Below, in pieces: positions 741 to 17,200 of a stretch of 64,000 nt of DNA. Position 1 is the first letter of the stretch; every line of letters starts with the position of its first letter. The stretch comes from a bacterium. Lineage in GTDB: Bacteria; Patescibacteriota; Patescibacteriia; UBA10025. The stretch is from NCBI GenBank assembly GCA_021815445.1, contig JAKAGM010000002.1, positions 307,720-371,719 on the forward strand, written 5' to 3'. Position numbers and translations under genes: made by a program. Below the pieces are notes generated by a model. That model saw only the letters and a program-made list of their open reading frames with translations. It did not search any database and had not been told where the DNA came from.

Positions 741-3464
741 ATGAATGGGAACGCCGAATTTCCAGGGGTAACTCTGGACGATATCAGGCGCGTCCCCAAT
801 CCGACTCCTGCGTTTTGGAGTTGGATGTGGGATGCGTTCGCTAACGGCCGGCTTGATATTGCCGTGCAAGCGGCACTCAGCGCCGGACAGGCAACGGGTG
901 TCGAAAGCGCCCTATCGTTTTTGCAGGAATTGGGGAGCCGCTGTCAGGGCGAACCTTCAGCCGTGCACGTCGCGGACATTCAAAGGAAGCGACATTCCTC
1001 TCGGCATACCAGTACGCTACAGAAGATGTTAGGGGCGCCTACCTGGGCGAAGGATCCGCAGCTTATCTTAGGAGCACGCGGTCACGCCGTAGCCTCAGCA
1101 CTTTTGCGAGGAGCATACGATTCACATCGTAGTTCTTCCAAACATTACAAAGGTCCAGCCGGACAGCTTTCGTTATTTCCTCCCTTTGTTGATGTACCAC
1201 CCGGCGGGCAAACCAGACTTTTTTCTGGACCAGCCAGTTATAGTGAGCCACGGAATCCTCAAGGCGTCCGTCGGGCATCGTACCCAGTATTGATTCACCG
1301 CATCGAAAAGCACTGGGACGTCATTCGTAGGCTTATCGAGAATGGTGATCTCAACGCTTGGCGGACACGCAAAGGTGTAGTCCACAGGCTTGAACAAGCA
1401 ATCGAACAGATTGTCGGTGATCCGATCAACAAGCTCTGGCGAGAAGGGTGGGATCCCAGCGGCAACCTCGTTGTCCTCACCATCTTAAGCTGGGCGGCGA
1501 TGATTATCTCCCGCGGTCTGCAACGAATTCCCCACGCACTTTTTACTGAGATTGGAGTTCTCGGACAGCAGCATGGTTTGGGCGGCGGACGGATTGACGC
1601 AATTGAAGTGACTAGTATCAACGGTAAAAATCCGACTCCGTACCAGCAGAGGCTGCTTGGGATTCTCAGCAAAGGGCATTATCGATCCACAGGCCATTTG
1701 ATGAGAGTGCTCCTGGGGAATTTCCGCAACCCGGAGATCGTCGTTATCGACTGGAAATTTTTAGTCGGTGACATGATGAGTCGCGGATCCCAGCCTGATT
1801 TGCGCGCTCTTTGCGCCTCGCCCTTGTCTCACCACGAGGACCAGATGAGACGGTATTTAACGCTTATCCAGCTTGACTACCATCTCACTATTCGTCACCC
1901 CGAGCTCTGGCAGACAAATGAATTCTCGTTGCACGGGGAGCTTCATTACATCTTTCCGCACTGCAAACCTGTCGTTCACAACGTATCCATGACGCCCCAG
2001 GAGCTCGAGCAGTGGTTTGCGAATTCTGTGGCGCTTCGATGGTCGGCTGTCCAACGCCGAGCAATAGTACGCGTGGTAGACAACTTCATTATGGGAACGC
2101 TCGTCGGATTGCTCAACGGCCGTCCGCGGAAAAGAAACGGTACCCTGCACAACGGTGAAGCCGGTGAGCAGATTGAGCTCATACCAGCAGAGCCGCGAGT
2201 AACAGCTGCAACCATCGTTGAGCGAACTCAGGATTCCCACAGGAGGTTTGTTGATGAACATCAGATCATAGAGATTGTCGAGGAAAGACCATCGGGACAG
2301 GTCATCGAAATGCGACTGGATCGTCTTATGGAATGCGTCAGCCAGGGGTCTGTCTCAACGTTCGGGTTCTCCGCAGCACGTGGCGGAAAAATCCAATGTC
2401 TCATGCCTGGTCATCGGGACTCCACTTTCTCCCTGCAGGTGTATCTCGCTGATTTCCGTCCGCATTTTCACTGTTTCGGATGCGGGGCACACGGAAAAAT
2501 TGCGAGTGAATCAATTTCTCGCGAGTTTGCCCTTGCGTTCATTGCGAATCACCAAACTGACGCGCGTACAATTCAGCCGGTGACCAGCTCCCGACTGCCG
2601 GTCATTCCTGAAGAGCACCACCGTATCATGTCGTGCGCGCAAAAACTGCTTTCAGGAAATTTCTGGAACAGTGAGGGAGAGAGATACCTTGTGCAGACCC
2701 GCAAACTTGATGTTCAGCTCGCGTTTGAAAAGGGCGCGGGCTACGCCGATAGTCGGTTCATTTGCGCTCTCCTGGAGGAAGGGCTGACAGTTGATGAGCT
2801 GATCGTCTACGGATTCGTCGGTATTTCGCGCTCGGTATCCAGCCGACACGGACTAGCGCCGCTTCTGTTTGATCGCGGTTTCAAGCTTAACGAGATCAAG
2901 CGCCCGCTCCCCGGTTCAACTTCTGGGAAACCTATCTGGGGGATGCCGTATTCAACCCTTAACAACCGCGTCACCTTTCCGTTGACGCTTGAGGGGAGGG
3001 TTACCAATATCTATGGCCGGGCGGCGTACCGATGCGATAGAAGATTCTCGCATAGGAAGCTCTCGACCGAAAAGACAAAAGTTCCCCAAGGCGGATTCCA
3101 CATGGAAGCGCTCGAGGGAGAGGAAGGCGAGGTCGTAATCTCCGAAGGTGCGATTGATGCACTATCGCTCATCGAGCTCGGATGGCCCCGATCGCTGGCG
3201 ATGATAGGCGTCAGTAATACTGCCATCATCCGCGTCATGGCGCGGTCGCAGCGGAATTTCGCTATAGCGTTAGATAACGACGATACGGGAAGGAGGGAGA
3301 CAGCGAAGCTTGTAGAGCGACTCCGGGGCTTCGGATGGAAAGGCCAATCGCGCGACTTCACGGGCGAGTTTGTCCGACAACATCATGATCGCCAGTTCAA
3401 GGATTACAATGATTGGCTTATTGCTACCCGACTGCCGGCACCCGACGATGATCCGCCCTTTTAA
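741..3464 (+). CDS. DnaG-type primase (CHC2 zinc finger + TOPRIM) with a ~500-aa N-terminal extension of unknown function
   Basis: Primase zinc-binding motif CLMPGHRDSTFSLQV...HFHCFGCGAHGKI. A TOPRIM follows: VVISEGAIDALSL...FAIALDNDDTGRRE. The N-terminal half has no motif I recognise, apart from a possible PD-(D/E)xK-like pair (GRIDAIEV ... VVIDWKF). Confidence 0.6.
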   Translation: MNGNAEFPGVTLDDIRRVPNPTPAFWSWMWDAFANGRLDIAVQAALSAGQATGVESALSFLQELGSRCQGEPSAVHVADIQRKRHSSRHTSTLQKMLGAPTWAKDPQLILGARGHAVASALLRGAYDSHRSSSKHYKGPAGQLSLFPPFVDVPPGGQTRLFSGPASYSEPRNPQGVRRASYPVLIHRIEKHWDVIRRLIENGDLNAWRTRKGVVHRLEQAIEQIVGDPINKLWREGWDPSGNLVVLTILSWAAMIISRGLQRIPHALFTEIGVLGQQHGLGGGRIDAIEVTSINGKNPTPYQQRLLGILSKGHYRSTGHLMRVLLGNFRNPEIVVIDWKFLVGDMMSRGSQPDLRALCASPLSHHEDQMRRYLTLIQLDYHLTIRHPELWQTNEFSLHGELHYIFPHCKPVVHNVSMTPQELEQWFANSVALRWSAVQRRAIVRVVDNFIMGTLVGLLNGRPRKRNGTLHNGEAGEQIELIPAEPRVTAATIVERTQDSHRRFVDEHQIIEIVEERPSGQVIEMRLDRLMECVSQGSVSTFGFSAARGGKIQCLMPGHRDSTFSLQVYLADFRPHFHCFGCGAHGKIASESISREFALAFIANHQTDARTIQPVTSSRLPVIPEEHHRIMSCAQKLLSGNFWNSEGERYLVQTRKLDVQLAFEKGAGYADSRFICALLEEGLTVDELIVYGFVGISRSVSSRHGLAPLLFDRGFKLNEIKRPLPGSTSGKPIWGMPYSTLNNRVTFPLTLEGRVTNIYGRAAYRCDRRFSHRKLSTEKTKVPQGGFHMEALEGEEGEVVISEGAIDALSLIELGWPRSLAMIGVSNTAIIRVMARSQRNFAIALDNDDTGRRETAKLVERLRGFGWKGQSRDFTGEFVRQHHDRQFKDYNDWLIATRLPAPDDDPPF

Positions 3465-3581: not shown

Positions 3582-3620
3582 TTGACGTTTATTCTTTTGT
3601 GTACTACCCTGTGTAGTAGG
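3582..3620 (+). promoter_or_regulatory. Promoter with BlaI/CopY-type operator dyad (copy 1 of 3)
   Basis: TTGACG, a 17-nt spacer, then TACCCT. The -10 region is overlapped by the inverted repeat TACTAC-cctgt-GTAGTA. A 23-nt core, TGTACTACCCTGTGTAGTAGGCA, is identical to the site at 7783. Confidence 0.65.
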
Positions 3621-3651: not shown

Positions 3652-4038
3652 ATGGGCAAAAAGTCGTTATCCACAACCGTAATTGTCGCATTTGTTCTTG
3701 CGTCTCTTTTGAGCCCTATTTTTCTCGCCTCATGCTCACTGGGCGCGGGGCACGATATAGTCATGAGGACTATCGGAATGAGTTGTTCGACAGAACTGCT
3801 CCGTCACCTCACTAAATTACAGGGGATATTTCTTGCATTTGCCATAAGCTTGGTACTGGCTATTCTCGCACCATATTTCGTACGTTCCGTAGATGATGAG
3901 AGTGAACTGACGCGTACACGACAAATATTTTTTTCTTTTCGGGCTTTTTCACACAACATGAAATTTTTTGACGCTCTTCGCCTAGCTTTTGCAGAGGGGG
4001 TCATCGGCGCAAAACGCTTCGACACACTGGCGGTCTAG
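3652..4038 (+). CDS. Hypothetical small membrane protein, first gene after operator 1
   Basis: ORF with two predicted hydrophobic helices. No recognisable motif. Confidence 0.4.
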   Translation: MGKKSLSTTVIVAFVLASLLSPIFLASCSLGAGHDIVMRTIGMSCSTELLRHLTKLQGIFLAFAISLVLAILAPYFVRSVDDESELTRTRQIFFSFRAFSHNMKFFDALRLAFAEGVIGAKRFDTLAV

Positions 4039-4169
4039 AACGGGTCCAAACAACCTCAACGGAGTATCGTCGAGTCAGGATCCGTTTTTTGGCATTCGAA
4101 GCGCTTTTAATGTATTTAAAAACTATGTCCAGACATTCACGTCAAAACAACTCATCTCATGTCATCGTA

Positions 4170-4772
4170 ATGAAAAAGAAACACTTCTATCTTTCGCTTG
4201 TTATGGTTATCGTCGCTGTCGGGATTTTAACCGCTGTCATTTCTTCGGGCAAAGGAAAGATAGGAAGCGTGGAGAGCTCCTCAGAAGTGTCGGGCAATAT
4301 ACAGTTTGAGAATGCAATCGGTAAGCGGGCGCCGGATTTTGAGCTTGAAAATACCAACGGCGCCAAGGTCAGTCTCAAACAGCTTCGGGGAAAGGCCATC
4401 GTCCTCTTCTTTAACGAAGGAAGCATGTGCTATCCGGCGTGTTGGAATCAGGTTAAAGAGCTCGCCGCCGACCAACGACTGAACAATGATCAGATTCAGG
4501 CTTACTCCATTGTCGACGAGTCAAAAGGCGCGTGGCAAAGCATCATGAAGAAGCAGCCGGAATATTCGACTGATAAAATGTTGTTTGATACCTCGCGGAA
4601 AGTATCTCTGGCGTATGATGTTCTTTCGCTTCCTTCCTCGATGCATAAAGGAGCATTTCCGGGACACACCTACATTGTGATAGATAAAGAGGGGATAATC
4701 CGCTACGTGCTTGACGATCCGAGCATGGCAATCCGCAACGACCAGATTCTGGCCGAGGCACAAAAGATCTAA
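4170..4772 (+). CDS. Membrane-anchored thioredoxin-like thiol:disulfide oxidoreductase (TlpA/ResA/redoxin family)
   Basis: Start MKKKHFYL, then an N-terminal TM. The motif FELENTNGAKVSLKQLRGKAIVLFFNEGSMCYPAC carries a CxxC-type redox pair in a thioredoxin fold. Confidence 0.75.
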   Translation: MKKKHFYLSLVMVIVAVGILTAVISSGKGKIGSVESSSEVSGNIQFENAIGKRAPDFELENTNGAKVSLKQLRGKAIVLFFNEGSMCYPACWNQVKELAADQRLNNDQIQAYSIVDESKGAWQSIMKKQPEYSTDKMLFDTSRKVSLAYDVLSLPSSMHKGAFPGHTYIVIDKEGIIRYVLDDPSMAIRNDQILAEAQKI

Positions 4773-4786
4773 CCCGTACTTCCCCT

Positions 4787-5683
4787 ATGGATCTTCTTAT
4801 CTCATCATCACTGATTACCGCATTTCTTGCCGGTGTTGCCGCGCTCTTCGCCCCCTGTTGCATTACCGTGCTCTTGCCCGCGTACCTCGCCTCGATATTC
4901 AAAGAAAAGCGCACGGTCTTTCTGATGACGTTTGTGTTTTTTCTCGGGCTGTTGACCATCTTCTTGCCGCTCGGGCTCGGATTCGCGGGTCTCGGGAAAT
5001 TTCTGACGCGAAACCATACGTGGGTCTTTATCGGGGGAAGCATTATTATGTTCGCGCTCGGAACCATGATATTGCTGGGCAAGCATATTTCCCTTCCTGT
5101 CCACCTGCCATCGACGAAGATTACCAATACCGGATCGGTGTATCTGCTCGGTATCTTTTCTGGAATAGCCACAGTATGTTGCGCGCCGGTGCTGGCAGGA
5201 ACACTTACCTTGTCTGTCCTGCCCGGGTCGGTGCTATGGGGAGGCGTATATGCGGTCGTGTATGTACTGGGCATGGTGATCCCGCTCTTCGTCATCGCCT
5301 TCTTCCTTGATGAAACACATGCAATAAAGAAATTGAAGATTTTCCGGGCTACGATGTCGTATTCCATCGGTGCGCGACAGGTGCATTTACGCATCGCCGA
5401 TCTTATTTCAGGTTTTACCTTCCTTCTTATGGGTGTCGTCACGGTGATTGTCGCGATAAAGAATCCTTCCGGCGGAATGGTCTTTTCGGGATCTGCTCTG
5501 CAGACAGCAGTCAATATCACAGCCTCGCAGATTACCGACGCGCTTTCACGCACCTCAGGCTCGGTTCCCGCATTCGCCTGGCTGATCGCCGTAGGCCTCA
5601 TTATTCTCGGTATTGTCGTCTATGCATGGAAAAGGTCGCATGATCCGTTAGCTGACAGCACGAAAGGAGGTGAAGAATTATGA
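4787..5683 (+). CDS. DsbD/CcdA-superfamily polytopic membrane protein with vicinal Cys-Cys motifs; a possible metal or thiol transporter
   Basis: FAPCCITVLLPAYL and TVCCAPVLAG occupy the two positions where CcdA has single Cys residues. Multi-TM protein. The stop overlaps the next start. Confidence 0.6.
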   Translation: MDLLISSSLITAFLAGVAALFAPCCITVLLPAYLASIFKEKRTVFLMTFVFFLGLLTIFLPLGLGFAGLGKFLTRNHTWVFIGGSIIMFALGTMILLGKHISLPVHLPSTKITNTGSVYLLGIFSGIATVCCAPVLAGTLTLSVLPGSVLWGGVYAVVYVLGMVIPLFVIAFFLDETHAIKKLKIFRATMSYSIGARQVHLRIADLISGFTFLLMGVVTVIVAIKNPSGGMVFSGSALQTAVNITASQITDALSRTSGSVPAFAWLIAVGLIILGIVVYAWKRSHDPLADSTKGGEEL

Positions 5684-6300
5684 AAGTGAAATACATTTTG
5701 AATGGAATTATATTCATCTATGCGTTCTTTTTTGTCGTCTTGAACGGGTTTCTGCTTGCCAGCACAGCCGTCATGGCGACCACCGCGATGGTGTCGCCAT
5801 CCCCAACAACTACGCAAACACAGCAGTCGCAAGGTCCCACGAATGCGCAGGTAGCTTCTGTCGTTGCCCAAGTTATCCCTGCGGGCATCCCGCCGGTGTA
5901 CGGATCGGAGCTCAATGTGAATTTCTCGAATCCTGTTGCGAGTCTGACTATCCTTGACGGCTATGACCGAGGCGCAAATAAAATTGATCTTCAGGGCGAT
6001 GCGCTCGCGCGATACATCAAGATAGCAATGAAAACGGCCTGTGAATTCTGTTGCGGAGCAAAAACGCTCGTGTTCAAAGATGGCAGTCCGGCATGCGGAT
6101 GCGCCCATTCAGCGGCAATGCGCGGCGTTGCCAAGTACTTGATCCAAAAACACGGCACTGAATTCACCGATGAGCAAATTCTGACTGAAGTGAATAAGTG
6201 GAAAGCGATATCGTTCCCCAAGCAGACGGTGGAGCGGGCGCTCGCGAGTGCCGGAGGGAGCAGCTCCGTAAATCTTCCCTCGCAAGTGGGCGGATGTTAA
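5680..6300 (+). CDS. Secreted Cys-rich protein ending in LPSQVGGC
   Basis: Signal peptide, a Thr/Gln-rich linker, then the cysteine cluster CEFCCGA...SPACGCAHS. The C-terminus is NLPSQVGGC. Confidence 0.5.
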   Translation: MKVKYILNGIIFIYAFFFVVLNGFLLASTAVMATTAMVSPSPTTTQTQQSQGPTNAQVASVVAQVIPAGIPPVYGSELNVNFSNPVASLTILDGYDRGANKIDLQGDALARYIKIAMKTACEFCCGAKTLVFKDGSPACGCAHSAAMRGVAKYLIQKHGTEFTDEQILTEVNKWKAISFPKQTVERALASAGGSSSVNLPSQVGGC

Positions 6301-6341
6301 CCGCCTCCAATATTCTAATATCCATAATCAATGAATAGCAT

Positions 6342-6641
6342 ATGAGCCAGATTTCCTCCCCGCACGGAGACGTGCTTCACAGACATGAGGATGCCCCGAA
6401 GGACAAGGTTGTTCAAATCCGCCTGAACCGGAGCACATTCATGAGCGGCATTTTACTTCTCTTTGCCATCGTGGTGACGGTGCAGTTCTTCCAGATCAAG
6501 GGCCTCAGGGCTCAGGTGACTAATTCCGGATCCGCACAGCAGCCGTCGGTGTCCGCCCCCGCCTCACAACAACCGGCTGCGCAACCGGCGCAGTCCTCGG
6601 GAGCGTTGCAAAACCTGCCAAGCCAGGTTGGAGGCTGTTAG
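6342..6641 (+). CDS. Small membrane-anchored Gln/Pro/Ala-rich protein ending in LPSQVGGC (alternative start 6441)
   Basis: The C-terminus QNLPSQVGGC is identical to the preceding protein's, with different codons. One TM helix (ILLLFAIVVTVQFF). Confidence 0.45.
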   Translation: MSQISSPHGDVLHRHEDAPKDKVVQIRLNRSTFMSGILLLFAIVVTVQFFQIKGLRAQVTNSGSAQQPSVSAPASQQPAAQPAQSSGALQNLPSQVGGC

Positions 6642-6645
6642 CCAT

Positions 6646-6885
6646 ATGAAGAGAGCCGAGCTAATCTTTTTTTCGCTCGTCGGACTCGTACTCCTAGTAG
6701 TGCTTGCCGCATCATTTGCCCCGCAGGCGCAGAAGTCGTTCCGCAATACCCCGGAAAACTATGCTCGCGCAAAGGCAGCGGAGGTCGCCGGCAACCCTTG
6801 TGCAACCCCGCCGGGGTACACTGATGCCCAATGGCGCCAGCATATGAGCCACCATCCGGATCAATATCCCGGCTGTCTGAAATAA
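6646..6885 (+). CDS. Small membrane-anchored His/Cys-containing protein
   Basis: TM anchor, then NPCATPPGYTDAQWRQHMSHHPDQYPGC. The two Cys and the His cluster suggest metal binding; that reading is inference. Confidence 0.4.
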   Translation: MKRAELIFFSLVGLVLLVVLAASFAPQAQKSFRNTPENYARAKAAEVAGNPCATPPGYTDAQWRQHMSHHPDQYPGCLK

Positions 6886-6889
6886 AGGT

Positions 6890-7630
6890 ATGAATCTCGT
6901 AGCCTTCCCATTTCTCTTCGGCATCCTCGCGTTCTTGTCACCCTGCATTATGCCCATGCTGCAGGTATATTTGTCCTTAGTTACCGGAACAACGATTTCC
7001 GAGCTAACGACAAAAGATCCGGATGCAGAGGTCCGCCGTAGAGTTTTGGGAAGGACTGCGTGCTTCATCCTGGGATTCAGTGTTGTATTCGTACTGGCCG
7101 GTATGTTTGCTGGTTCAGTAGGATCGTTCCTGAAGGAGAGATCGGTCGTGCTCAATTATATCGGGGGGTTGATCATCGTTCTGCTGGGCCTCAAGATGCT
7201 CGGAGTGTTCCAGATGAAATTTCTCAGCAATCTGCATCTAGAGCCGGAGCGATTTCCCTTGCTCAAGAAGGATACCATGGCTGGAGCATTCTTGGTCGGC
7301 CTCTTTTTCGCGGTAGCCTGTTCGCACTGTTTCGGACCGCTGTTGTACTCCACGCTTATCGTTGCTGCCAATACCCAGTCCGCAACCAGCGGACTCGTAG
7401 TGCTCTTGAGCTTCTCTGCAGGCTTGGCTGTTCCGTATTTTATCACTGCCGCAGCGCTGCCGAGCGTTCTCGGGATGCTTCGACGGTTCAGCGCTGCAAT
7501 TACCGTGATCATAAAGGCGAGCGGGGCGTTCCTGGTCATTTTCGGCGTATTGGTGTTCTTCAACCAGTTTCAAATTCTCGCAACGCTTCTGGGCAAGATT
7601 GTTCCATGGGGAAATATCCTTTCCCTATAA
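6890..7630 (+). CDS. ccdA: Cytochrome c-type biogenesis / thiol-disulfide electron transporter CcdA
   Basis: LSPCIMPMLQVY in TM1, then a second conserved Cys motif, CSHCFGPLL. Roughly six TM helices. Confidence 0.8.
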   Translation: MNLVAFPFLFGILAFLSPCIMPMLQVYLSLVTGTTISELTTKDPDAEVRRRVLGRTACFILGFSVVFVLAGMFAGSVGSFLKERSVVLNYIGGLIIVLLGLKMLGVFQMKFLSNLHLEPERFPLLKKDTMAGAFLVGLFFAVACSHCFGPLLYSTLIVAANTQSATSGLVVLLSFSAGLAVPYFITAAALPSVLGMLRRFSAAITVIIKASGAFLVIFGVLVFFNQFQILATLLGKIVPWGNILSL

Positions 7631-7762: not shown

Positions 7763-7800
7763 TTGACGGCCGTTTTATTTTGTACTACCCTGTGTAGTAG
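7763..7800 (+). promoter_or_regulatory. Promoter with BlaI/CopY-type operator dyad (copy 2 of 3); autoregulatory site of the repressor operon
   Basis: TTGACG, a 17-nt spacer, TACCCT, and the dyad TACTAC-cctgt-GTAGTA. The 23-nt core TGTACTACCCTGTGTAGTAGGCA is identical to site 1. Confidence 0.7.
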
Positions 7801-7825
7801 GCACTTATCCACACACCAAAATCAT

Positions 7826-8209
7826 ATGGCCAAACCTTCATTTCACCTCCTTGGAGACCTTGAGAAGCAGATCATGGAAATTGTTTGGAAACAGGAGCAG
7901 GTTACCGTCAGAGGCGTTGTAGAAATACTCCATAAAAAGCGTGAGATTGCTTATACGACAGTCATGACAGTTATGAACCGGCTTTCCGAGAAAAAGCTGC
8001 TCACCCGAAAGGAAGACGGCGGCGCTTTTGCATATGTAGCCACCCAGAAACGGGAATTATTCATGAGTAGGGCATCCGAAAATGTTATTCGTGGGCTGTT
8101 ATCCGAGTGCGGAGAGGTGGCCATAGCCCAATTTGTTGAAGCACTCGAGGATGTTGATCCGGCGAAGTTAGCACTGCTTGAAAAAAAGATTAGGGAAAAA
8201 CGGTCATGA
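7826..8209 (+). CDS. BlaI/MecI/CopY-family winged-helix transcriptional repressor (no C-terminal Cys-rich metal-binding tail)
   Basis: N-terminal penicillinase-repressor fold (IMEIVWKQEQVTVRGVVEILHKKREIAYTTVMTVMNRLSEKKLLTRK). No CxCx4CxC tail. Confidence 0.8.
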   Translation: MAKPSFHLLGDLEKQIMEIVWKQEQVTVRGVVEILHKKREIAYTTVMTVMNRLSEKKLLTRKEDGGAFAYVATQKRELFMSRASENVIRGLLSECGEVAIAQFVEALEDVDPAKLALLEKKIREKRS

Positions 8210-9258
8210 ATAAGCGAGACAGATCTACATTTTGGTCGTTTGTCCTCTACAGCGCGAGCGGAATATTCGGTATTAGTGCCGCCGCGGTGCTTGGCGGTGC
8301 GCTCCTGCCTCATATATCTTCCTCAGTGGGAATTCTCCTCGCACGCGTGGTGCATACGTGCAGCCAATTACTTTCGACTGTTGCAGGGCGGGATATTTTC
8401 CTCAGCTCATTGAACGCGCTTATTCTGCTTTTCGTGGGAGCCTTTTTCCTGACAGGTGCTGGTCTTTTTTTCCATGCCTCGTGGAAGACTGGACGGTACG
8501 TCTCATCTTTGCGAAAAAAAATTTTTCACCTTTCGGATTCTCGAAAAAAGATGTTCAATACAATGTTTCCGTCACTTACCCTCGTCGGAGTGGATGATCA
8601 GCATCCCTTCGTAGTGAGCGCCGGTTTGTTCAAACCGAAAATATACGTCAGCGCCGGTTTGTTGACTCTCTTATCGGACGATGAGCTTGTAAGCGTTTTT
8701 AAACACGAGGAATACCATTGCAGAAATCGGGACACCGCACGTTTGTTTATCGTGCATTTTTTCAGAAAACTGTTTTGGTTCGTTCCCGGCATTTCAAAGT
8801 TTGCCGCACAGGTCCAGACACTTTTTGAAATATCAGCTGATGAGCACGCTATCCACGCACTTGGTGATGATACGGCACTCGGGAGTGCACTTGTAAAAGT
8901 ACTTCGCCACCCGTCTCATTCGGCGATACCGGAACTCATTCCGGCTTTTTCTTCGGTGAATGATCGCATTGGGCGGCTTCTAGACGCGTCCTACAAACCT
9001 TCGACACGTGCAGCCGTGGCGGTGCCGATTTTTGGGATACTATTCCTGCTTCTTTCGGTGTTCTTTGCCCGAGGCAGTTTCGCCGCACCCAATGTTGCTT
9101 TTGACGGTTTCGAATTGCATAAGATGTCCCAGTCAAGAATATGTCCACAAATTGTTCCCGAACTGCTCATGAGCGTTCCTCAGAACCGTGTCTGCGTCCA
9201 CCCGCAAAATAGTACGCAGGCGCCGTCATGCGGCGAAACACACCCTACAACTAACTAG
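8206..9258 (+). CDS. BlaR1/MecR1-like M56 integral-membrane metalloprotease (anti-repressor), lacking a penicillin-binding sensor domain
   Basis: Four TM helices. The motif HEEYH (HExxH) sits in FKHEEYHCRNRD. At 350 aa there is no room for the C-terminal BlaR sensor domain. Start overlaps the repressor gene stop. Confidence 0.75.
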   Translation: MNKRDRSTFWSFVLYSASGIFGISAAAVLGGALLPHISSSVGILLARVVHTCSQLLSTVAGRDIFLSSLNALILLFVGAFFLTGAGLFFHASWKTGRYVSSLRKKIFHLSDSRKKMFNTMFPSLTLVGVDDQHPFVVSAGLFKPKIYVSAGLLTLLSDDELVSVFKHEEYHCRNRDTARLFIVHFFRKLFWFVPGISKFAAQVQTLFEISADEHAIHALGDDTALGSALVKVLRHPSHSAIPELIPAFSSVNDRIGRLLDASYKPSTRAAVAVPIFGILFLLLSVFFARGSFAAPNVAFDGFELHKMSQSRICPQIVPELLMSVPQNRVCVHPQNSTQAPSCGETHPTTN

Positions 9259-9276
9259 AGAACATGCACTCATTAT

Positions 9277-10230
9277 ATGTCTGATACCATCACAAAAGAT
9301 ATTTGGATCCAGGGTATGCACTGTGACGCATGCGAAAAAACTATCCGCAAATCATTGGAACGCATAGGGGTAGGTGTTGAAGATATTCGTTATACTAATA
9401 ATCGTGTTGAATTACTCTATGATCCGCTGAGAGTGCCTTTCTCCCAAATTGAAGGTGCCGTCGCTGACGTCGGGTACCGCGTGCGAGAAACTCCTCCCGA
9501 GGAATCAGGTCCGCGGGAAACTTCAATTGAGCGCGCCAAAAGGGTTTTTCATTCTTTTCGAAATGACCCTGAAGCGTATCAACTGGAAAAACAAGTCATC
9601 AAAAGCACGCTCGGTACGTTGTTTATTGCGGCGGCATTAGAGTATCTCATCTATTTTATTTTCTTTTGGAACATTCAAGGATTTCTCCATACCTACGGCC
9701 AATATCTTGGGTACTTGATTGTCGGTGTCGTCGCAACAGGAGGAGCGGTAAGGCACTTACGGGCGTATCAGGGGGCCGTTTCATGCATGACAGGAATGAT
9801 GATTGGAATGACCATCGGGATGATTTCCGGCCTGCTTCTGGGGGCAGTTGTTGGCGCAACCAACGGCATGTTCGTTGGCTCTGTTTTCGGGATGGCTGTC
9901 GGTATGGCCGTCGGCGGCTGGGTAGGGGTGTGTTGTGGGATCATGGGACTCATGGAAGGCATGATGGCGGGGCTTATGGGCGGCACTATGGGCGCGATGA
10001 TCGGGGTGATGATGATTCCCGACAGACTCACGCTCTTTTTGCCGATATTCTTTGTCGCATGTCTTGCAATACTCGCAGGTCTTAGCTATATGGTGTACAA
10101 GGAGCACAAAGGCGCGCGAGACGAGGTAAAGTTGTATGGATTCTGGCCGTATACTTTTATCAATTTTGCATTCGTTCTTGCGGGAACCATCATCATCGTG
10201 TGGGGACCCAAGGCGGCATTTTTACGTTAA
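9277..10230 (+). CDS. HMA (CopZ-like) domain fused to a Met/Gly-rich polytopic membrane domain
   Basis: N-terminal GMHCDAC heavy-metal-associated motif. The membrane part is glycine-zipper/Met-rich (GMMIGMTIGMISG...GMAVGMAVGGWVGVCCGIMGLMEGMMAGLMGG) and includes a vicinal CC. Confidence 0.65.
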   Translation: MSDTITKDIWIQGMHCDACEKTIRKSLERIGVGVEDIRYTNNRVELLYDPLRVPFSQIEGAVADVGYRVRETPPEESGPRETSIERAKRVFHSFRNDPEAYQLEKQVIKSTLGTLFIAAALEYLIYFIFFWNIQGFLHTYGQYLGYLIVGVVATGGAVRHLRAYQGAVSCMTGMMIGMTIGMISGLLLGAVVGATNGMFVGSVFGMAVGMAVGGWVGVCCGIMGLMEGMMAGLMGGTMGAMIGVMMIPDRLTLFLPIFFVACLAILAGLSYMVYKEHKGARDEVKLYGFWPYTFINFAFVLAGTIIIVWGPKAAFLR

Positions 10231-10236
10231 CGAAAA

Positions 10237-10461
10237 ATGGATACTCTTACGCTTTCAATTTCGGGCATGCATTGCGCATCCTGCAGTAAACTGATCACTA
10301 TGGACCTGGAAGACATCGGCGTGACAGCCAGTATTGATCGCGACACCGGAAAGGGCAAAGTTACATTTGATCCTCAAAAAGTTTCGCAGGACCAAATACT
10401 CGATCAAATCAAAAAAAGCGGTTATCAGGCGTCAGTTATCACGGGTGGGACAGCACAATGA
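10237..10461 (+). CDS. copZ: Copper chaperone CopZ (single HMA domain)
   Basis: 74 aa with GMHCASC. Confidence 0.85.
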   Translation: MDTLTLSISGMHCASCSKLITMDLEDIGVTASIDRDTGKGKVTFDPQKVSQDQILDQIKKSGYQASVITGGTAQ

Positions 10462-11216
10462 ACGTCACTCAATTACCGCTTGCACTTTCTTTTGTCTTCG
10501 GTGTTCTTTCCATCATATCCCCCTGCGTGATAGTTTTGCTGCCCGCGTACTTGGCCACCATCACGGGGTTCAGCATCGAAGAGCTCACTTCAGCAGAACA
10601 CGAGAGCATTGTCCTTCGAAGGATACTTGGAAATGCGCTCGGGTTTATTCTCGGCTTCTTCCTGGTTTTTATCCCTCTAGGTGCGCTGATCGGTGTGGCG
10701 GCAACTGCGATAGGAAGCGCACGATCGGTTTTCGCGGTCGTCGCGGGCGTCATCGTCGTGCTCCTCGGGATGAATTTCCTGTATCCGCTCCCTTTTCTCA
10801 GGTGGATCAACACCGATGTCCGGATTCGCTGGAAACCTCGCGGCTATTCGTTCATCAGTAATATTTTCTTCGGCGCCGTATTCGCTTTTGTATGGACTCC
10901 CTGCGTTGGACCGTATCTCGTGGCTGTCACAGCTCTGGTCGGGTCGACGGGAGACATCGGCAAAGGCGTAGCGTACTTTTCTCTCTACGCACTCGGTCTG
11001 GCGATAAGCATGCTCGTATTTACTGTCTTTTACACCAAAGTGGCATTCGTGACGAATTTTCTCAAACAACACTCGCGGTCTATCCAAGTAATCAGCGGAA
11101 TTCTCCTTATCACCATCGGCATTCTCATGATATCCGACAAACTCTATCTTACCAACATTGCTATCAATAAATTCTTCGGCGGTTTCCAACCCGAATCGTG
11201 GTTTATTAATTCATAA
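10458..11216 (+). CDS. ccdA: CcdA-family thiol-disulfide transporter (second copy)
   Basis: ISPCVIVLLPAYL in TM1, with a second Cys motif TPCVGPYL. Confidence 0.8.
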   Translation: MNVTQLPLALSFVFGVLSIISPCVIVLLPAYLATITGFSIEELTSAEHESIVLRRILGNALGFILGFFLVFIPLGALIGVAATAIGSARSVFAVVAGVIVVLLGMNFLYPLPFLRWINTDVRIRWKPRGYSFISNIFFGAVFAFVWTPCVGPYLVAVTALVGSTGDIGKGVAYFSLYALGLAISMLVFTVFYTKVAFVTNFLKQHSRSIQVISGILLITIGILMISDKLYLTNIAINKFFGGFQPESWFINS

Positions 11217-11227
11217 TATACAGCACT

Positions 11228-11659
11228 ATGGCCTCACAAAAATCAGACAGTTCGCATTTTATCAGAAATATGATGATCGTCATGGGCATTGTCACTGCTC
11301 TCAGCGGTGCAGCTGCCTGGCGTCTCGGTTCACGGGCGACAATTACGCCGAGAACAAGTGACACCACGGTTGCCGACGATTTGTCCGGAAGCGCGCAAGA
11401 CGCTGTTTCTATCACCGTAGCGTCCTCAGGATATACTCCGGGGGAAATCACGGTACCTCAGGGCAAGAAAGTTCGCCTCAACCTTGTCACCAACGGCACG
11501 TACGGATGCATCCGCTCTTTTGTCATCCCGAAACTTGGGATTTCAAAAACTCTCCCGACAAGCGGCACGACAACCGTCGAGTTTACTCCGACGGAAAAGG
11601 GGACACTCGCGTTCCAGTGTTCCATGGGGATGTTCAGGGGAAATATTAAAGTCATATAA
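11228..11659 (+). CDS. Cupredoxin-like (Cupredoxin_1/EfeO-N-type) protein with N-terminal TM anchor
   Basis: C-terminal YGC...FQCSMGMFRGNIKV copper-site-like motif. Paralogous to the next gene. Confidence 0.6.
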   Translation: MASQKSDSSHFIRNMMIVMGIVTALSGAAAWRLGSRATITPRTSDTTVADDLSGSAQDAVSITVASSGYTPGEITVPQGKKVRLNLVTNGTYGCIRSFVIPKLGISKTLPTSGTTTVEFTPTEKGTLAFQCSMGMFRGNIKVI

Positions 11660-11665
11660 ATTTTC

Positions 11666-12037
11666 ATGGACCCGCGCCAACTGATTGGCATTGTTCTGAT
11701 CGCACTAGTCGTAGGGCTTTTTTTTCTGTGGCTGAGGTTCCAGCGGCGCCAAGAGCGCGCCTCAGAGAGCGGTGGTATCCAAGAGGTTACCATTCTCGTC
11801 AAGGGAGCGTACGATCCGAACGTGATTACCGCAAAGGCCGGCATACCCCTTCGTATCCATTTTAACCGGCAGGAAGATACTGACTGCTCCCGGTTTGTTA
11901 CCTTCGATACGCTCCATCTAAGAAAGAATTTAAAATCCTTTTCGACAACCGAAATCGAATTTACCCCAGAAAAAGCGGGCGAGTATCCTTTCGCATGCGA
12001 TATGGGCATGTATCAGGGAAAGTTGATCGTAAAATAG
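11666..12037 (+). CDS. Cupredoxin-like protein (tandem paralog)
   Basis: FACDMGMYQGKLIVK C-terminus with the same architecture. Single TM anchor. Confidence 0.6.
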   Translation: MDPRQLIGIVLIALVVGLFFLWLRFQRRQERASESGGIQEVTILVKGAYDPNVITAKAGIPLRIHFNRQEDTDCSRFVTFDTLHLRKNLKSFSTTEIEFTPEKAGEYPFACDMGMYQGKLIVK

Positions 12038-12046
12038 TAGAGACAT

Positions 12047-14341
12047 ATGGGACAGCAGACGACGACATTATCACTTCGGGGAATGCATTGCGCGAGTTGC
12101 GCGCAGTTGATTGAGCGCGGGCTCAAAAAGGTTCCGGGGGTGCAGCAAGCCAACGTAAATTACGGCACCGAACGAGCCCATGTAGTGTTCGACTCGGTGA
12201 CTGCCTCGGTTGATTCCTTGATTCGGGGCGTGGAGAATGTCGGGTATCATGCCAAGGAACTAAAAGAAGACCGTCAGTCGCGCCAGTCAGAAGACGACGA
12301 ACGTCGCCGGGAGATACAGAAAATCAAGACAAAATTTTTTATCAGTCTCGTCCTATCCCTCCCCGTGCTCGTGCTCAGTATGGGCATGAAGATTGTTCCC
12401 GCGATCGAAAATATACCGAATCGCGAATGGATCCAGTTTCTCTTTGCGACGCCCATTCAGTTTTGGGCCGGGTGGCAGTTCTATCGTGGATTCTGGGGGG
12501 CGCTGAAGGCCCGTACGGCGAATATGGACAGTCTCATCGCCCTCGGCACCTCCGCGGCGTATTTTTACTCCTTAGTCGTTATCCTCAAGCTTGTTGAGGG
12601 GGAAGTATACTTTGAAATAGGGAGCATTCTGATTGCATTCGTTCTCCTGGGCAAATGGCTCGAGGCGCGAGCCAAAGGCAAGACAGGAGAAGCCATCAAA
12701 AAGCTCATGGGCCTGGCGCCCACTACTGCGTTTGTTATTCGCGGCGAGAGGGAGCTGGAGATCCCGCTCGAACAGGTGGTCGTCGGGGATCATATCCGGG
12801 TGAAACCGGGGTCGAAGATTCCTGTTGACGGCATGGTTGAAGATGGCGTTTCGTCGGTTGATGAGTCAATGATAACCGGCGAAAGCATTCCAGTAGAAAA
12901 AAGCGCCGGAACGGCGGTGATCGGCGGAACTATCAATATCCACGGCTCATTCGTCTTCCAGGCGAAAAAGATTGGGAAAGAAACGTTACTTGCCGGAATT
13001 ATTAAGCTCGTTGAGGATGCTCAGGCGTCCAAGGCGCCCATTCAGCGTTTTGCCGACCGGGTATCGGCGTATTTTGTCCCTATAGTCATCGCGCTCGCGC
13101 TCATTACCTTTCTGTCATGGTATTTTATCGCGGCCCAGCCGTTTGTTTCCAGTTTACTCGCGTTTGTCGCCGTGCTAGTCATCGCCTGCCCCTGCGCGCT
13201 CGGTCTCGCCACTCCTACGGCAATTATTACTGGCACGGGACTGGGCGCGTCGCGGGGCATTCTCATCAAAGGCGGTGAAGCGCTTGAAGCAGCCAGAAAA
13301 ATCGACACGGTGGTTTTTGACAAGACGGGGACCCTGACGATAGGCAAGCCGCTGGTCACGGATATTGTCCAGCTTGAAGAAGGCCAGAAAGCGCTCACCT
13401 TTTTTATTCATCAGATGGCCGGCACGCATATTGAAGATATCCTGCTCCAGGTCGCCGCATCACTCGAGGCGCAATCGGAGCACTCGTTGGCTGAGGCCAT
13501 TGTCAAAGAGGCAAAAGTTCGAAAATTGCCGTTATTTGCCATACGGAATTTTTCCGCGCAGCCGGGCAGAGGAGTGTATGCTGAAATTGTTCCCGCAGAC
13601 GGCGTTACATCAACAGTCAATGTACTTCTAGGTAATAGGAAGATGATGGTCGAAGCGGGGATACCTCTAGGTTCCGCCGAATCCTTTATGCATGCACTTG
13701 AGGAACAGGGCAAGACAGTGATGGCGGTCGGCATACTCGGCCAGCAGGGATCTACGCATGTTGTTGCGGGGCTTATCGCCGTCTCTGATGTTCCAAAGCA
13801 GGATGCCAGAGAAGCGGTTCGCGCGCTCACAGAACGTGGAATTTCTGTCGCGATGATTACCGGCGACAACAGGAGGACCGGAGAGGCTATCGCGCGGCAG
13901 CTGGGCATCACCCGAGTTCTGGCCGAAGTATTGCCCCAGGACAAAGCCGACGAAGTAAAGAAACTTCAGGCAGAAGGGAAGAAAGTGGCTTTTGTCGGGG
14001 ATGGAGTCAATGATGCTCCGGCGCTTGCCTCGGCAGATCTCGGCATTGCCATCGGCTCGGGGACTGACGTTGCGCTCGAGGCCGGGCAGATTGTGCTGGT
14101 AAAAAACAATTTACTCGATGTCGTCAGAGCTATCCGACTTTCTCAGGCGACGTTTCGTAAAATTGTCCAAAATCTTTTTTGGGCCCTTATCTACAATGTC
14201 GCCGGCATACCCATCGCGGCAGGGGCATTGTACGGGGTGCTCGGATGGCAACTGAGACCCGAAATTGCCGGAGCGGCTATGGCTCTGTCCAGTGTCTCTG
14301 TTGTGACAAATTCTCTTCTTTTAAAGCGATTTCGAGCATAA
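12047..14341 (+). CDS. copA: Copper-translocating P1B-type ATPase CopA
   Basis: N-terminal HMA (GMHCASC), CPC motif ([11 protein letters not shown]), DKTGTLT phosphorylation site and the GDGVNDAP hinge. Confidence 0.95.
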
Positions 14342-14375: not shown

Positions 14376-14412
14376 TTGACCTGCGTGAATATTCTACTAC
14401 AATAAGTAGTAG
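14376..14412 (+). promoter_or_regulatory. Promoter with BlaI/CopY-type operator dyad (copy 3 of 3), upstream of the DsbA-like genes
   Basis: TTGACC, a 16-nt spacer, then TACAAT. It is overlapped by CTACTAC-aataa-GTAGTAG, which has the same half-sites and 5-bp spacing as sites 1 and 2 but a different spacer sequence. Confidence 0.6.
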
Positions 14413-14426
14413 CTCTTTGAAAGATA

Positions 14427-15209
14427 TTGCGTCTAAAGGGCAAGTTACCTTCCTTATGGTATACTGGAATCATTATGGCTGGTATCCCACCACTAGAACC
14501 CGTAAAAAAGCCGTTGGTACTCCGATGGTGGTTTTTGATGACAGTTTTTTTGGCCGTAATAATAGCCGGTTCGTTTGGGATGTTAGTGTATGAAAATTAC
14601 CGCGCCCTCCAGAAAGGTGAGATAAGCATTGCAGGAGGTATCACGCGGGATCCGAACGCTACGGCGACAAATGTAGCGATTGCCAATGTGGTCACTGATG
14701 ACGACCCTTCTCTTGGTCCTAAAGATGCCAAGGTGGTCGTAGTCGAGTTTGCCGATTTTCAATGTCCGTATTGTCAGGAGGCATTTCCCATTATCAGGGA
14801 GCTTACGGTGAAGTACGCAGACAAGGTCCGGTTTATTTATCGTGATTTTCCCGTGGGCAGTGTGCACCCGGACGCCCAAAACGCGGCAATAGCAGCGTCG
14901 TGCGTAGCCAAGCAGGATCAGGTGAAGTTTTGGCTCTATCATGACAAACTTTACCTGAACCAGGAAGATTTAGGCCAGGACGCACTCTTAAGATACGCCC
15001 TGCAGGTAGGCGCAGACGAACAGAAGTTTCTCGCATGCATCAATGATTCGAGCGTTGCCCAGGAGGTTCAAAATGATTATCAGGACGGCATTATCGCCGG
15101 CGTGACGGGGACTCCGACATTCTTTATAGACGGCAGGCGGGTACCGGGGGTGATCCCTCTCGATATCTTCACAAAGGCGCTTGATTCCGAACTTTCCAAA
15201 CAACAATAA
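14427..15209 (+). CDS. Membrane-anchored DsbA-like thiol:disulfide oxidoreductase
   Basis: FADFQCPYCQEAFP CxxC motif in a DsbA fold. N-terminal TM. Alternative start at 14475. Confidence 0.75.
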   Translation: MRLKGKLPSLWYTGIIMAGIPPLEPVKKPLVLRWWFLMTVFLAVIIAGSFGMLVYENYRALQKGEISIAGGITRDPNATATNVAIANVVTDDDPSLGPKDAKVVVVEFADFQCPYCQEAFPIIRELTVKYADKVRFIYRDFPVGSVHPDAQNAAIAASCVAKQDQVKFWLYHDKLYLNQEDLGQDALLRYALQVGADEQKFLACINDSSVAQEVQNDYQDGIIAGVTGTPTFFIDGRRVPGVIPLDIFTKALDSELSKQQ

Positions 15210-15356
15210 ACCACAGACGTAAACAGTCGGTCACCCTACGCCAGTCCAATTCTTTCTTTGGTCGCTGACATGAGAAAGTGAAGCGGGTTGACTACTTTAC
15301 GCCTGCTGGTATACTAGGACGACTACCTCTAATTATTTTTTAAAAGTTTCGTTACT

Positions 15357-16136
15357 ATGGAGAAAGAACAAAAGATAACTCACCAATCAGAGGACGGTAT
15401 TTTCCAGGCGTCGCCAAAAGTGACGTTTTACTTGGGATTGCTGTCGGGTATCACGCTTGTCAGCGTCATCGGTTTCTTTTTAACCTTTTCGATGCTACGA
15501 AGCGGATCTGTCGTGACAAAGAACACAAACTCAGGAACCAATGGGACGGTCGCCGGTGCAGATACAAACACGAATACTGCTGCTGCTCCTGCAGCTGCCC
15601 CGACAGCACCCGTTGATATCAAACTCACCGCTGATGACCACGTGAAGGGTAATGCAAATGCCAAGGTAACTCTGGTAGAATATTCTGACTTCCAGTGCCC
15701 GTTTTGCGCTACAGTCAGACCAACATTGGATCAAGTTATGAAGGACTATGGGGATAAAGTAAAACTTGTGTATCGCAATTATCCTCTGACTTCACTGCAT
15801 CCGATGGCCCAAAAGGCGGCAGAAGCATCAGAGTGCGCATCTGAGCAAGGGAAATTCTGGGAGATGCACGATAAACTCTTCGACCAGAATACTGCGGGCA
15901 CGATGAGCGTGGATAACTTCAAGAAAGCTGCCGGAGAGTTAAAACTCAACCAGAGCCAGTTTGATACCTGTCTCGACACAGGAAAGTATGCGAGCAAGGT
16001 TACAGCCTCCGAGACCGAGGGGACTTCATTCGGCGTGCAAGGCACCCCGGCGACTTTCGTCAACGGCGTGCTTATTTCCGGTGCGGTGCCATATGCGCAG
16101 TTTAAGACTGCGATAGACAACGCATTGAGCTCCTGA
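15357..16136 (+). CDS. Membrane-anchored DsbA-like thiol:disulfide oxidoreductase (paralog)
   Basis: YSDFQCPFCATVRP. An Ala/Thr-rich linker follows the TM anchor. Confidence 0.75.
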   Translation: MEKEQKITHQSEDGIFQASPKVTFYLGLLSGITLVSVIGFFLTFSMLRSGSVVTKNTNSGTNGTVAGADTNTNTAAAPAAAPTAPVDIKLTADDHVKGNANAKVTLVEYSDFQCPFCATVRPTLDQVMKDYGDKVKLVYRNYPLTSLHPMAQKAAEASECASEQGKFWEMHDKLFDQNTAGTMSVDNFKKAAGELKLNQSQFDTCLDTGKYASKVTASETEGTSFGVQGTPATFVNGVLISGAVPYAQFKTAIDNALSS

Positions 16137-16148
16137 GACCACTTTAAG

Positions 16149-16979
16149 ATGATTTTTGGAAGCGCCCTACCGAATCCGATCGCGTTGTCGGTGGGCGCTT
16201 TTGGTATTCGGTGGTACGCGCTTATCATTGTAAGCGCTATAGTAGCCGGGTTTAGCATCACGCGAAGGATGGCGCGCCAACAAGGAATCCAGGATGAAAC
16301 TGTGTGGGATATTCTGCTCTTCACGATTCCCGCGGCAATTATTTTCGGCAGATTGGCTTTTGTGCTAAGTCACCTTCCTCTCTACTATACGTTTAAAGAT
16401 ACCCTAAAAATTTGGGAAGGCGGCATTTCGAGCCACGGAACTATATTGGGAGGTTTGCTGGTCATTGTACTCATCGCATGGAAGCGACGAATTTCGTTTT
16501 GGATGCTTATGGACATCATTGTTCCCGGCGCCGTGCTCGCACAAGCGATAGGGAGGTGGGGCAACTACATGAATCAAGAGGCATTCGGCCCGCCGACAAA
16601 CCTGCCGTGGGCTGTCCCTATCCAGCCCTCTCTGCGGCCGGATAGATACGCTAACTTCGATTACTTCCATCCCACCTGGCTCTATGAGTCGATCTGGAAT
16701 CTCGTCGTTTTTGTTGTCCTCCTGCTTTTGTTCAAAAGGGTTCGGCATAAACCCGGTGTCCTCGCGGCCATTTATTTCCTTTTGTATTATGCCGGGAGGT
16801 TCGTCCTAGAGTTTTTCCGACTTGATACCGTTTTTGTCGGTGCAGTACGGTTTACCACGTACCTCAGTATCGCTGTAATGATCGTCGCTGTAAGCGTATT
16901 GATTGCGCGTATGCGGAGAGCACCTCAAACATTTGAGGATATAGAGACTATTCAGACCAACAAGCAGGGCACCGCATAG
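16149..16979 (+). CDS. lgt: Prolipoprotein diacylglyceryl transferase Lgt
   Basis: Lgt signature GRWGNYMNQEAFGPPTNLPWAV in a polytopic membrane protein. Confidence 0.85.
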   Translation: MIFGSALPNPIALSVGAFGIRWYALIIVSAIVAGFSITRRMARQQGIQDETVWDILLFTIPAAIIFGRLAFVLSHLPLYYTFKDTLKIWEGGISSHGTILGGLLVIVLIAWKRRISFWMLMDIIVPGAVLAQAIGRWGNYMNQEAFGPPTNLPWAVPIQPSLRPDRYANFDYFHPTWLYESIWNLVVFVVLLLLFKRVRHKPGVLAAIYFLLYYAGRFVLEFFRLDTVFVGAVRFTTYLSIAVMIVAVSVLIARMRRAPQTFEDIETIQTNKQGTA

Positions 16980-17186: not shown

Positions 17187-17200
17187 ATTCGAAAAAATGC

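Follow-up and report, generated by a model that had tools for sequence, protein, structure and literature searches.

The 64,000-nucleotide (nt) stretch of DNA analysed here (the window; contig JAKAGM010000002.1 of assembly GCA_021815445.1, from a member of the Patescibacteriota) carries a gene pair for a BlaI-family repressor and an M56 membrane zinc protease, and these are the first genes of an operon that ends with copA, the gene for a copper-exporting ATPase. The pair probably forms a proteolytic switch of the PetR/PetP kind, serving copper efflux and the maintenance of disulfides outside the cytoplasm in a genome of the Patescibacteria, or candidate phyla radiation (CPR); for copper efflux, such a switch would most likely take the place of CopY, CsoR or CueR. 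We find the pair to be real, functional-looking and conserved, and it is best filed with the PetRP and atypical BlaIR systems rather than as a new kind of system. What is new in relation to these is the operator and its regulon, the recurrence of the arrangement in CPR loci, and an outward-facing cysteine module in the protease.

Repressor, protease and outward cysteine module

The first gene of the pair encodes a winged-helix protein of the BlaI/CopY type, as an earlier note on this DNA had proposed from the sequence. Residues 9-123 match PF03965 (E-value 4.5e-29, 101.6 bits against a cutoff of 22.6), and the closest solved relative is BlaI of Mycobacterium tuberculosis (2g9w, E-value 2.5e-12), followed by MecI and BlaI. 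The best NCBIfam match is CopY_TcrY (TIGR02698, E-value 2.7e-16), at 60 bits against a cutoff of 121.95. C95 is the only cysteine, there are two histidines and no CxC motif, and no cysteine or histidine is conserved among 26 orthologues, five of which have neither. Because both the conserved ligands and the CxCx4CxC tail are missing, the repressor cannot sense copper in the manner of CopY, a point on which the earlier note was right. Two candidates were rejected on this basis: a metal-sensing site in the repressor itself, which the note had left as a possibility, is ruled out by the lack of conserved cysteine or histidine in the orthologues, and membership in CopY is ruled out by the absent cysteine motif, the score below cutoff and the absence of the cop box (TACANNTGTA), which has 0 matches in the 64-kb window.

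BlaI and MecI are cleaved at N101-F102, within the C-terminal dimerisation domain. This N-F region aligns with Q102-F103 of the window repressor (LVLNFVE of MecI with A-I-A-Q102-F103-V-E), and G-[ED]-V-A-V-A-Q-F-[IV]-D is the best conserved stretch of the C-terminal half across the 26 orthologues. The conserved AQF region would thus fit inactivation of the repressor through cleavage.

The start of the protease gene overlaps the end of the repressor gene, as the earlier note had seen: ATG and TGA share the letters ATGA at 8206-8209, a coding overlap of 4 nt. The same coordinates for both genes come from an independent gene call (contig DAIENG010000002.1 of the metagenome-assembled genome (MAG) GCA_027341205.1), and the nearest relatives of these genes are found in MAGs of Patescibacteria/Parcubacteria. 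The 350-residue product, described in the note as a BlaR1-type M56 protein with an HEEYH motif, indeed matches PF05569 (E-value 1.2e-13, 51.4 bits against a cutoff of 31) and has its HExxH as H167-E-E-Y-H171. In an alignment of 49 homologues H167, E168, H171, E208, D212 and R254 are invariant, so that the doubt whether the catalytic residues would hold on closer alignment is settled: the set is complete. These residues make up the gluzincin motifs HExxH and ExxxD and the stabilising arginine known from BlaR1 (PMC9834060; bioRxiv 10.64898/2026.08.03.742534). The AlphaFold2 model of the protein (mean pLDDT confidence 83, predicted template modelling score 0.80) retrieves cryo-electron microscopy structures of Staphylococcus aureus BlaR1 as its top six matches in the Protein Data Bank (Foldseek; 8exs, 8exp, 8exr; E-values 4.5e-5 to 9e-4, probability 1.0).

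In line with the earlier note, no penicillin-binding sensor domain is present: a Pfam scan of the M56 protein gave no transpeptidase or penicillin-binding protein (PBP) domain (PF00905 or related), and the blaR1_generic profile scores 37.9 bits against a cutoff of 400, with positions 172-314 of its 585 matched. A sensor domain encoded downstream or behind a frameshift was looked for and not found, since the next gene, whose start codon lies 18 nt past the M56 gene, encodes a membrane protein with an HMA domain. Close homologues from independent assemblies have a common end point, at total lengths of 344-350 residues; these equal lengths, together with the HMA gene that follows, rule out a hidden or split beta-lactam sensor.

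The topology differs from that described in the earlier note, which counted four transmembrane (TM) segments and had the protein stop right after the protease domain. By hydropathy there are three membrane segments (12-30, 59-77 and 269-287), and the AlphaFold2 model has helices 3-49 and 56-104, which form a long hairpin with its tip at H50-T-C52, and a third helix at 269-291. By the positive-inside rule the N-terminus and the protease would be cytoplasmic, because the N-terminus is basic (MNKRDR) and a very basic stretch follows residue 90, and the hairpin tip and the C-terminal tail would face outward. After the protease core, helix 269-291 is followed in the close homologues by a tail of 59-63 residues with invariant C313, C330 and C342 and the motif V-P-[EQ]-L-L-M-S, and this tail is kept in all of them. 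The label "sensor-less", which the note had used, is therefore misleading for a protein that holds a conserved, cysteine-bearing outward module.

An exhaustive profile search with the M56 protein found no more than four close representatives, after which the score falls from 452 to 144 bits; beyond them lie 33,118 more distant M56 matches, the top 150 of which are all short (183-389 residues). A C-x-C motif, mostly CGCxxH, occupies the equivalent loop in 71 of the 155 M56 proteins examined, and all but one of these 71 have a tail of 45-65 residues, mostly with exactly four cysteines. Nearly all of 173 aligned short M56 proteins have one loop cysteine, and 59 have six cysteines, two in the loop and four in the tail. 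Losses come in pairs: tail Cys3 and Cys4 are jointly lost in 11 of the 173 sequences, and the window clade lacks one loop cysteine and tail Cys2. Because they are lost pairwise, the loop and tail cysteines appear to be partner residues, which suggests disulfides or co-ligands.

In the model the C52 loop directly precedes helix 56-104, which runs into the protease domain. In BlaR1, extracellular loop 1 (EL1) touches the sensor domain and passes the signal via helix alpha3 to the protease (PMC9834060), and Met53 and Met58 of PetP have been put forward as copper ligands (bioRxiv 10.1101/2020.07.31.226407). The C52 hairpin tip would occupy the position of EL1 and of the Met53/Met58 loop, the equivalence with PetP being by the residue numbers quoted in that paper only, and the window loop holds H50 and C52 and no methionine pair. 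We regard the conserved outward cysteine module as the obvious candidate for the sensor.

Operators, predicted regulon and related loci

The copper-operon context given in the earlier note is borne out: past the M56 gene follow genes for the HMA-domain membrane protein, a CopZ-like chaperone, a CcdA-type transporter, two cupredoxin-like proteins and the Cu-type P1B ATPase CopA (Table 1), and the linkage recurs in other loci. Ahead of blaI, 26 nt before its ATG, stands a perfect inverted repeat of TACTAC and GTAGTA (7783-7788 and 7794-7799) with a 5-nt spacer, and a -10-like TACCCT lies within the operator that it forms (operator 2). Operator 1 is an exact 19-nt copy of operator 2, and the promoter of operator 3 scored 10 of 12 positions in a promoter scan. 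Each of the three heads a run of same-strand genes and has a TTGAC 14-15 nt upstream. Because of this spacing the operator takes in the -10 hexamer (TACAAT or TACCCT), and a predicted operator placed over the -10 box has the standard layout of a repressor site.

A scan of the window for the operator with up to three mismatches gave nine matches, a number that 0 of 100 shuffles reached. With up to two mismatches, TACTAC-N5-GTAGTA occurs at only three sites in the 64 kb, each an exact match and all of them in promoter gaps of the copper/disulfide cluster. The predicted regulon covers about 13 kb in three units (3652-7630, 7826-14341 and 14427 onward), and its genes include copA, copZ, those for the cupredoxins, three ccdA genes, dsbA and a redoxin gene. 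The second dsbA and lgt are doubtful members, since a further promoter-like site stands at 15288-15315.

The arrangement is conserved. In two loci of the window clade (L001 and L002) the gene order is that of the window, the proteins are 44-70% identical, and operators stand at two matching positions, upstream of blaI and upstream of dsbA; in each of the clade's three loci, copZ and copA belong to the blaI-M56 operon. A metagenome scan with an 11-sequence alignment of C-x-C-type M56 relatives yielded 80 loci, and blaI adjoins the M56 gene in approximately 80 loci. In L003 to L030 the order is blaI, M56, and then genes for a protein of the type encoded at 5680-6300, a cupredoxin, CopA, DsbA, CcdA or a redoxin, and almost every one of these loci (about 27) has an operator before blaI and a second right after the M56 gene, where the next gene encodes a cupredoxin, CopA, DsbA or a 5680-type protein. 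Homologues of the 5680-6300 protein are encoded directly after this second operator in 16 related loci. Altogether about 30 related CPR loci have the operator in corresponding places, with the consensus TTGACA-N15-TACTACAnTnTGTAGTA; the distance from TTGAC to the operator is exactly 15 nt at 24 of 51 sites and 14-16 nt at 27. Exact matches to the operator number 31 in about 0.89 Mb, against the 0.05-0.2 or so expected by chance (our own arithmetic from the motif length). Where the flanking sequence reached 6 kb or more, copper genes were present in 12 of 20 loci from these two related groups with Cys-rich M56 proteins, as against 5 of 20 loci that have another short M56 protein (Fisher p = 0.054).

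Related half-sites also occur farther afield. Three soil-metagenome loci (L033, L077 and L081), with short M56 proteins of the HERYH type and flanks rich in guanine and cytosine (GC), have TACGAC-N3-6-GTCGTA upstream of blaI, which suggests that TAC[TG]AC half-sites are common to a wide branch of BlaI repressors.

A second motif accompanies the operators. A perfect DnaA-box 9-mer (TGTGGATAA / TTATCCACA) occurs in the window at 7805-7813 and at 3667-3675, in both cases shortly downstream of an operator. The related loci have the 9-mer on the other side: 17 of their target promoters carry it 35-37 nt upstream of the operator, a constant distance that puts it some 8-10 nt ahead of the -35 box (examples are L004:11060, L005:9005 and L017:6478; in L004 and L005 it lies past the stop codon of the M56 gene). 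Exact DnaA boxes number 32 in 431 kb, against about three expected, and 19 of them are within 70 nt of an operator. The promoter DnaA box could be a site for a second regulator or for DnaA.

The upstream operon holds three small proteins without a family match. One of its products, the 99-residue protein of 6342-6641, has the same last eight residues as the 5680-6300 protein (LPSQVGGC, directly before the stop), and among the window's open reading frames (ORFs) of at least 50 codons these two alone have a GGC C-terminus. This end might act as a C-terminal cysteine tag, bind a metal or direct the sorting of the proteins.

Table 1. Coordinates of the gene pair, the predicted operators and the genes around them (positions in the window; parts of proteins by residue).
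Feature	Position	Strand	Remarks
Promoter and operator 1	3582-3619	+	-35 TTGACG 3582-3587, 15 nt, predicted operator GTACTACCCTGTGTAGTAG 3601-3619
Small membrane protein	3652-4038	+	Predicted target operon 1 (3652-7630, operator 1)
AhpC/TSA-redoxin	4089-4772	+	Pfam; predicted target operon 1
CcdA-like protein	4787-5683	+	Pfam; predicted target operon 1
Cys-rich CcmH-like protein	5680-6300	+	Predicted target operon 1
Small ORFs	6342-6641, 6628-6885	+	Predicted target operon 1
CcdA	6890-7630	+	Pfam; predicted target operon 1
Promoter and operator 2 (predicted autoregulation)	7763-7800	+	-35 TTGACG 7763-7768, 15 nt, predicted operator GTACTACCCTGTGTAGTAG 7782-7800
Perfect DnaA-box 9-mer TTATCCACA	7805-7813	+	Between operator 2 and the blaI start codon
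BlaI-family winged-helix repressor, 127 residues	7826-8209	+	PF03965 (Pfam); without metal-binding tail
Predicted cleavage region of the repressor			G-E-V-A-I-A-Q102-F103-V-E in the 127-residue protein
M56 membrane zinc protease, 350 residues	8206-9258	+	PF05569 (Pfam)
Predicted layout of the M56 protein			TM1 ~12-32; outward hairpin tip H50-T-C52; TM2 ~65-89; cytoplasmic protease 90-265; TM3 269-291; outward tail 292-350
Fusion of an HMA domain with a Met/Gly-rich membrane domain, 317 residues	9277-10230	+	HMA PF00403, residues 9-67
CopZ-like copper chaperone, 74 residues	10237-10461	+	HMA, E-value 1.8e-10
CcdA/DsbD-type membrane thiol-reductant transporter	10458-11216	+	DsbD_TM PF02683
Two cupredoxin-like proteins	11228-11659, 11666-12037	+	Cupredoxin_1, E-values 3.5e-17 and 4.1e-22
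CopA, Cu(I)-type P1B ATPase	12047-14341	+	Last gene of the blaI operon; TIGR01511 ATPase-IB1_Cu, 601 bits against a cutoff of 397
Promoter and operator 3	14376-14412	+	-35 TTGACC 14376-14381; -10 TACAAT inside the perfect 19-nt palindrome CTACTACAATAAGTAGTAG 14394-14412
DsbA-like protein	14427-15209	+	Thioredoxin_4/DSBA match; predicted target, operator 3
DsbA-like protein	15357-16136	+	Thioredoxin_4/DSBA match; regulon membership uncertain
Lgt	16149-16979	+	LGT match; regulon membership uncertain

The proposed switch and competing readings

In the switch that we propose, a repressor dimer would bind the three TACTAC-N5-GTAGTA operators, each over the -10 box of a TTGAC-type promoter, and would shut off its own operon (blaI-M56-HMA membrane protein-copZ-ccdA-two cupredoxins-copA), the upstream redoxin/ccdA operon and dsbA. 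The M56 protease would take in the signal, presumably copper stress or damage that copper does to thiols outside the cytoplasm, through an outward module that is built from the TM1-TM2 hairpin tip (H50, C52) and the 60-residue tail with its cysteines. An altered state of the cysteine module would then be passed via helix 56-104 to the protease, which would cut the repressor near Q102-F103; with the dimerisation helix lost, the cluster would be derepressed. More tentatively, and with somewhat less conviction than we attach to the switch itself, the idea may be extended: copper efflux in Patescibacteria may be under regulated proteolysis instead of allosteric control by a repressor that binds metal, a previously undescribed outward cysteine module (the loop C(x)C(xxH) and a tail of three to four cysteines) may read Cu(I) or copper-driven thiol damage outside the cell, and this module may act with the uncharacterised CcmH-like CGCxH family that is common to CPR bacteria and DPANN archaea.

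Several points speak against a copper-responsive switch of this kind. The contrast in copper-gene linkage between the groups of loci is marginal (Fisher p = 0.054), the most constant first target of the Cys-rich family is the CcmH-like thiol protein and not copA, and CopA is encoded within 10 kb in about half of the loci of that family. The outward tail is modelled at a pLDDT of 52-62, its cysteines could be mere structural disulfides, and we infer the signal from the gene neighbourhood alone. Because of the CcmH-like first target and the presence of CopA in only about half of the loci, a thiol/disulfide signal fits equally well.

The alternative that survives best, although we hold it to be rather unlikely, retains the same architecture and regulon and takes extracytoplasmic thiol/disulfide stress as the signal; the outward cysteines of the M56 protein would be a redox switch, and copper would act indirectly, via wrong disulfides. 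The predicted regulon is indeed rich in genes for DsbA, CcdA and redoxin, and the loss of cysteines in pairs, both Cys3 with Cys4 and, in the window clade, the loop cysteine with tail Cys2, is what would be seen for disulfide partners. However, the pair of the window clade shares its predicted transcript with copZ, the cupredoxin genes and copA, CxC and CGCxxH are also typical of soft-metal ligands, and PetRP, the one sensor-less relative that has been tested and whose signal is known, responds to copper.

Copper could also be sensed on the cytoplasmic side, through the HMA-membrane protein or through Cys172, next to the zinc ligand H171, with the outward cysteines having a structural role only. 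We give this a small chance. Each of the three window-clade loci has the HMA-membrane gene next after M56, and this gene is better conserved than its neighbour (60-70% identity against about 45% for M56); HE[EHS][YH]HC is invariant in that clade, and CopA exports cytoplasmic Cu(I), so that a sensor there would make sense. The larger Cys-rich family, however, has leucine in place of C172 and no HMA-membrane gene, yet its operators and regulon follow the same logic, and to our knowledge no BlaR-type system uses an HMA partner. As for the HMA-membrane protein itself, its family match is limited to the HMA (CxxC) part, the membrane domain reading for instance GMMIGMTIGMISG...GLMEGMMAGLMGGTMGAMIGVMM, and its homologues in L001 and L002 are likewise encoded directly after M56; it is a candidate copper-handling membrane protein or protease partner.

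That the repressor senses metal itself, as CopY does, and that the M56 protein has no part in signalling and serves housekeeping or quality control instead, is very improbable. CopY_TcrY is the best NCBIfam match of the repressor and M56/M48 proteins are akin to the HtpX quality-control proteases, but the 60 bits fall far under the cutoff of 121.95, CxC, conserved cysteine or histidine and the cop box are all missing, and the adjacency of blaI and M56 in about 80 loci, the 4-nt coding overlap in the window and the conserved cleavage-site region count against it as well. A BlaR system for beta-lactams or the cell wall that has degenerated, its sensor domain having been lost or split off or having escaped notice through an assembly frameshift, has the family name and the BlaR1 structural matches in its favour and is hardly credible, given homologues from independent assemblies that end alike with a conserved tail, an HMA gene 18 nt on, the lack of a beta-lactamase or PBP gene in the regulon, and a transpeptidase domain that only about 6% of M56 proteins have in any case (PMC13492132).

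Relatives, significance and surroundings

The closest known parallel to the proposed copper-responsive switch is PetR/PetP (Slr0240/Slr0241) of Synechocystis sp. PCC 6803, where degradation of PetR requires PetP and copper (bioRxiv 10.1101/2020.07.31.226407). Like the window pair, it combines a BlaI/CopY-family factor that has no cysteine tail with an M56/M48 membrane protease that has no C-terminal beta-lactam domain, the start of the protease gene overlaps the stop of the regulator gene, the operator is an inverted repeat with a 5-nt spacer, and the protease has candidate soft-metal ligands in an outward loop before the helix into the protease. The operators themselves differ (GAC-N5-GTC in PetRP against TACTAC-N5-GTAGTA in the window), and so do the proteases, PetP having the Met53/Met58 loop and a last predicted helix that ends at residue 278, whereas the window protein has H50/C52 and a 60-residue, three-cysteine tail beyond its last helix. 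PetRP, which has been described in cyanobacteria only, controls the switch between plastocyanin and cytochrome c6 (petE/petJ, four genes) and not genes for copper efflux or Dsb proteins. In view of this precedent for a copper-dependent BlaI/M56 switch, the earlier note was only partly right in speaking of an uncharacterised signalling variant.

The BlaI/BlaR1 and MecI/MecR1 systems of S. aureus likewise join a Penicillinase_R repressor to an M56 protein with HExxH and ExxxD, and in BlaR1, as in the window protein, an outward loop feeds the TM helix that leads into the protease. They differ in their transpeptidase-like sensor domain, in having four membrane helices where the window protein has three clear ones, in their targets (beta-lactamase and PBP2a) and in the half-site (TACA/TGTA against TACTAC). 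CopY, CopR and TcrY of the Firmicutes have in common with the window repressor the winged-helix family and, as predicted for the window, autoregulation and repression of a copA/copZ operon. The window repressor differs in having no CxCx4CxC/CxC motif, in its TIGR02698 score below the cutoff and in the absence of a cop box from the window; CopY, for its part, is released when Cu(I) displaces zinc and not by proteolysis, and has no paired M56 gene (PMC11672702).

A BlaI protein is also paired with an M56 protein that has no beta-lactam domain in Rv1846c/Rv1845c of M. tuberculosis, whose BlaI is the solved relative named above (2g9w), and in BlaIR of Mycobacterium abscessus, CenIR of Clostridioides difficile and PvmSR of Pseudomonas aeruginosa. 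The signals of these atypical BlaIR pairs are unknown (PMC13492132; bioRxiv 10.64898/2026.08.03.742534), and they are unlike the window pair in that the same two papers give them no link to copper genes and no Cys-rich outward module. A sensor-less M56 protein is not a rarity: only about 6% of some 15,000 M56 proteins have a transpeptidase domain, and the sensor-less form is the commonest architecture (PMC13492132). Our literature search found no paper that ties BlaI/M56 to copA, describes the cysteine module or covers such systems in CPR bacteria.

The known regulators of copper-efflux operons, CueR, CsoR and CopY, all bind Cu(I) directly. If the proposed switch is true, BlaI/M56 proteolysis over copA would be a mechanistically different, fourth route of copper-efflux control, and PetRP, the single tested example, would be extended from copper sparing to copper detoxification. 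It would also provide a testable signal for one branch of the very large group of BlaIR-like systems for which no inducer is known (PMC13492132). The conserved arrangement of operator and promoter offers a rare and directly usable way into the regulation of transcription in CPR bacteria, which cannot be grown alone, and would, on the same premise, permit the prediction of whole regulons across uncultured lineages. There is a practical side as well: where such genes are annotated as "beta-lactamase regulating" or BlaR1-like, they could be miscounted as antibiotic-resistance determinants.

An Rfam scan of the window returned tRNAs only, with no regulatory RNA near the cluster. The cluster is flanked on one side by a 907-residue Toprim and CHC2 zinc-finger (primase-like) gene (741-3464, + strand) and on the other by two adjoining tRNA-Met genes (17112-17274, + strand). 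In a check for a mobile island, the GC content of the cluster was not distinct and the 741-3464 product had no similarity to the large ORF upstream of the L001 cluster. Close to the predicted regulon but not part of it is a gene for a secreted blue-copper protein of the plastocyanin/azurin type (142-516, + strand; PF00127) with a C-x2-H-x4-M site; no operator of up to two mismatches lies near this gene. Farther along, a single ORF for a product of 3,700 residues spans 41457-52559 on the + strand.

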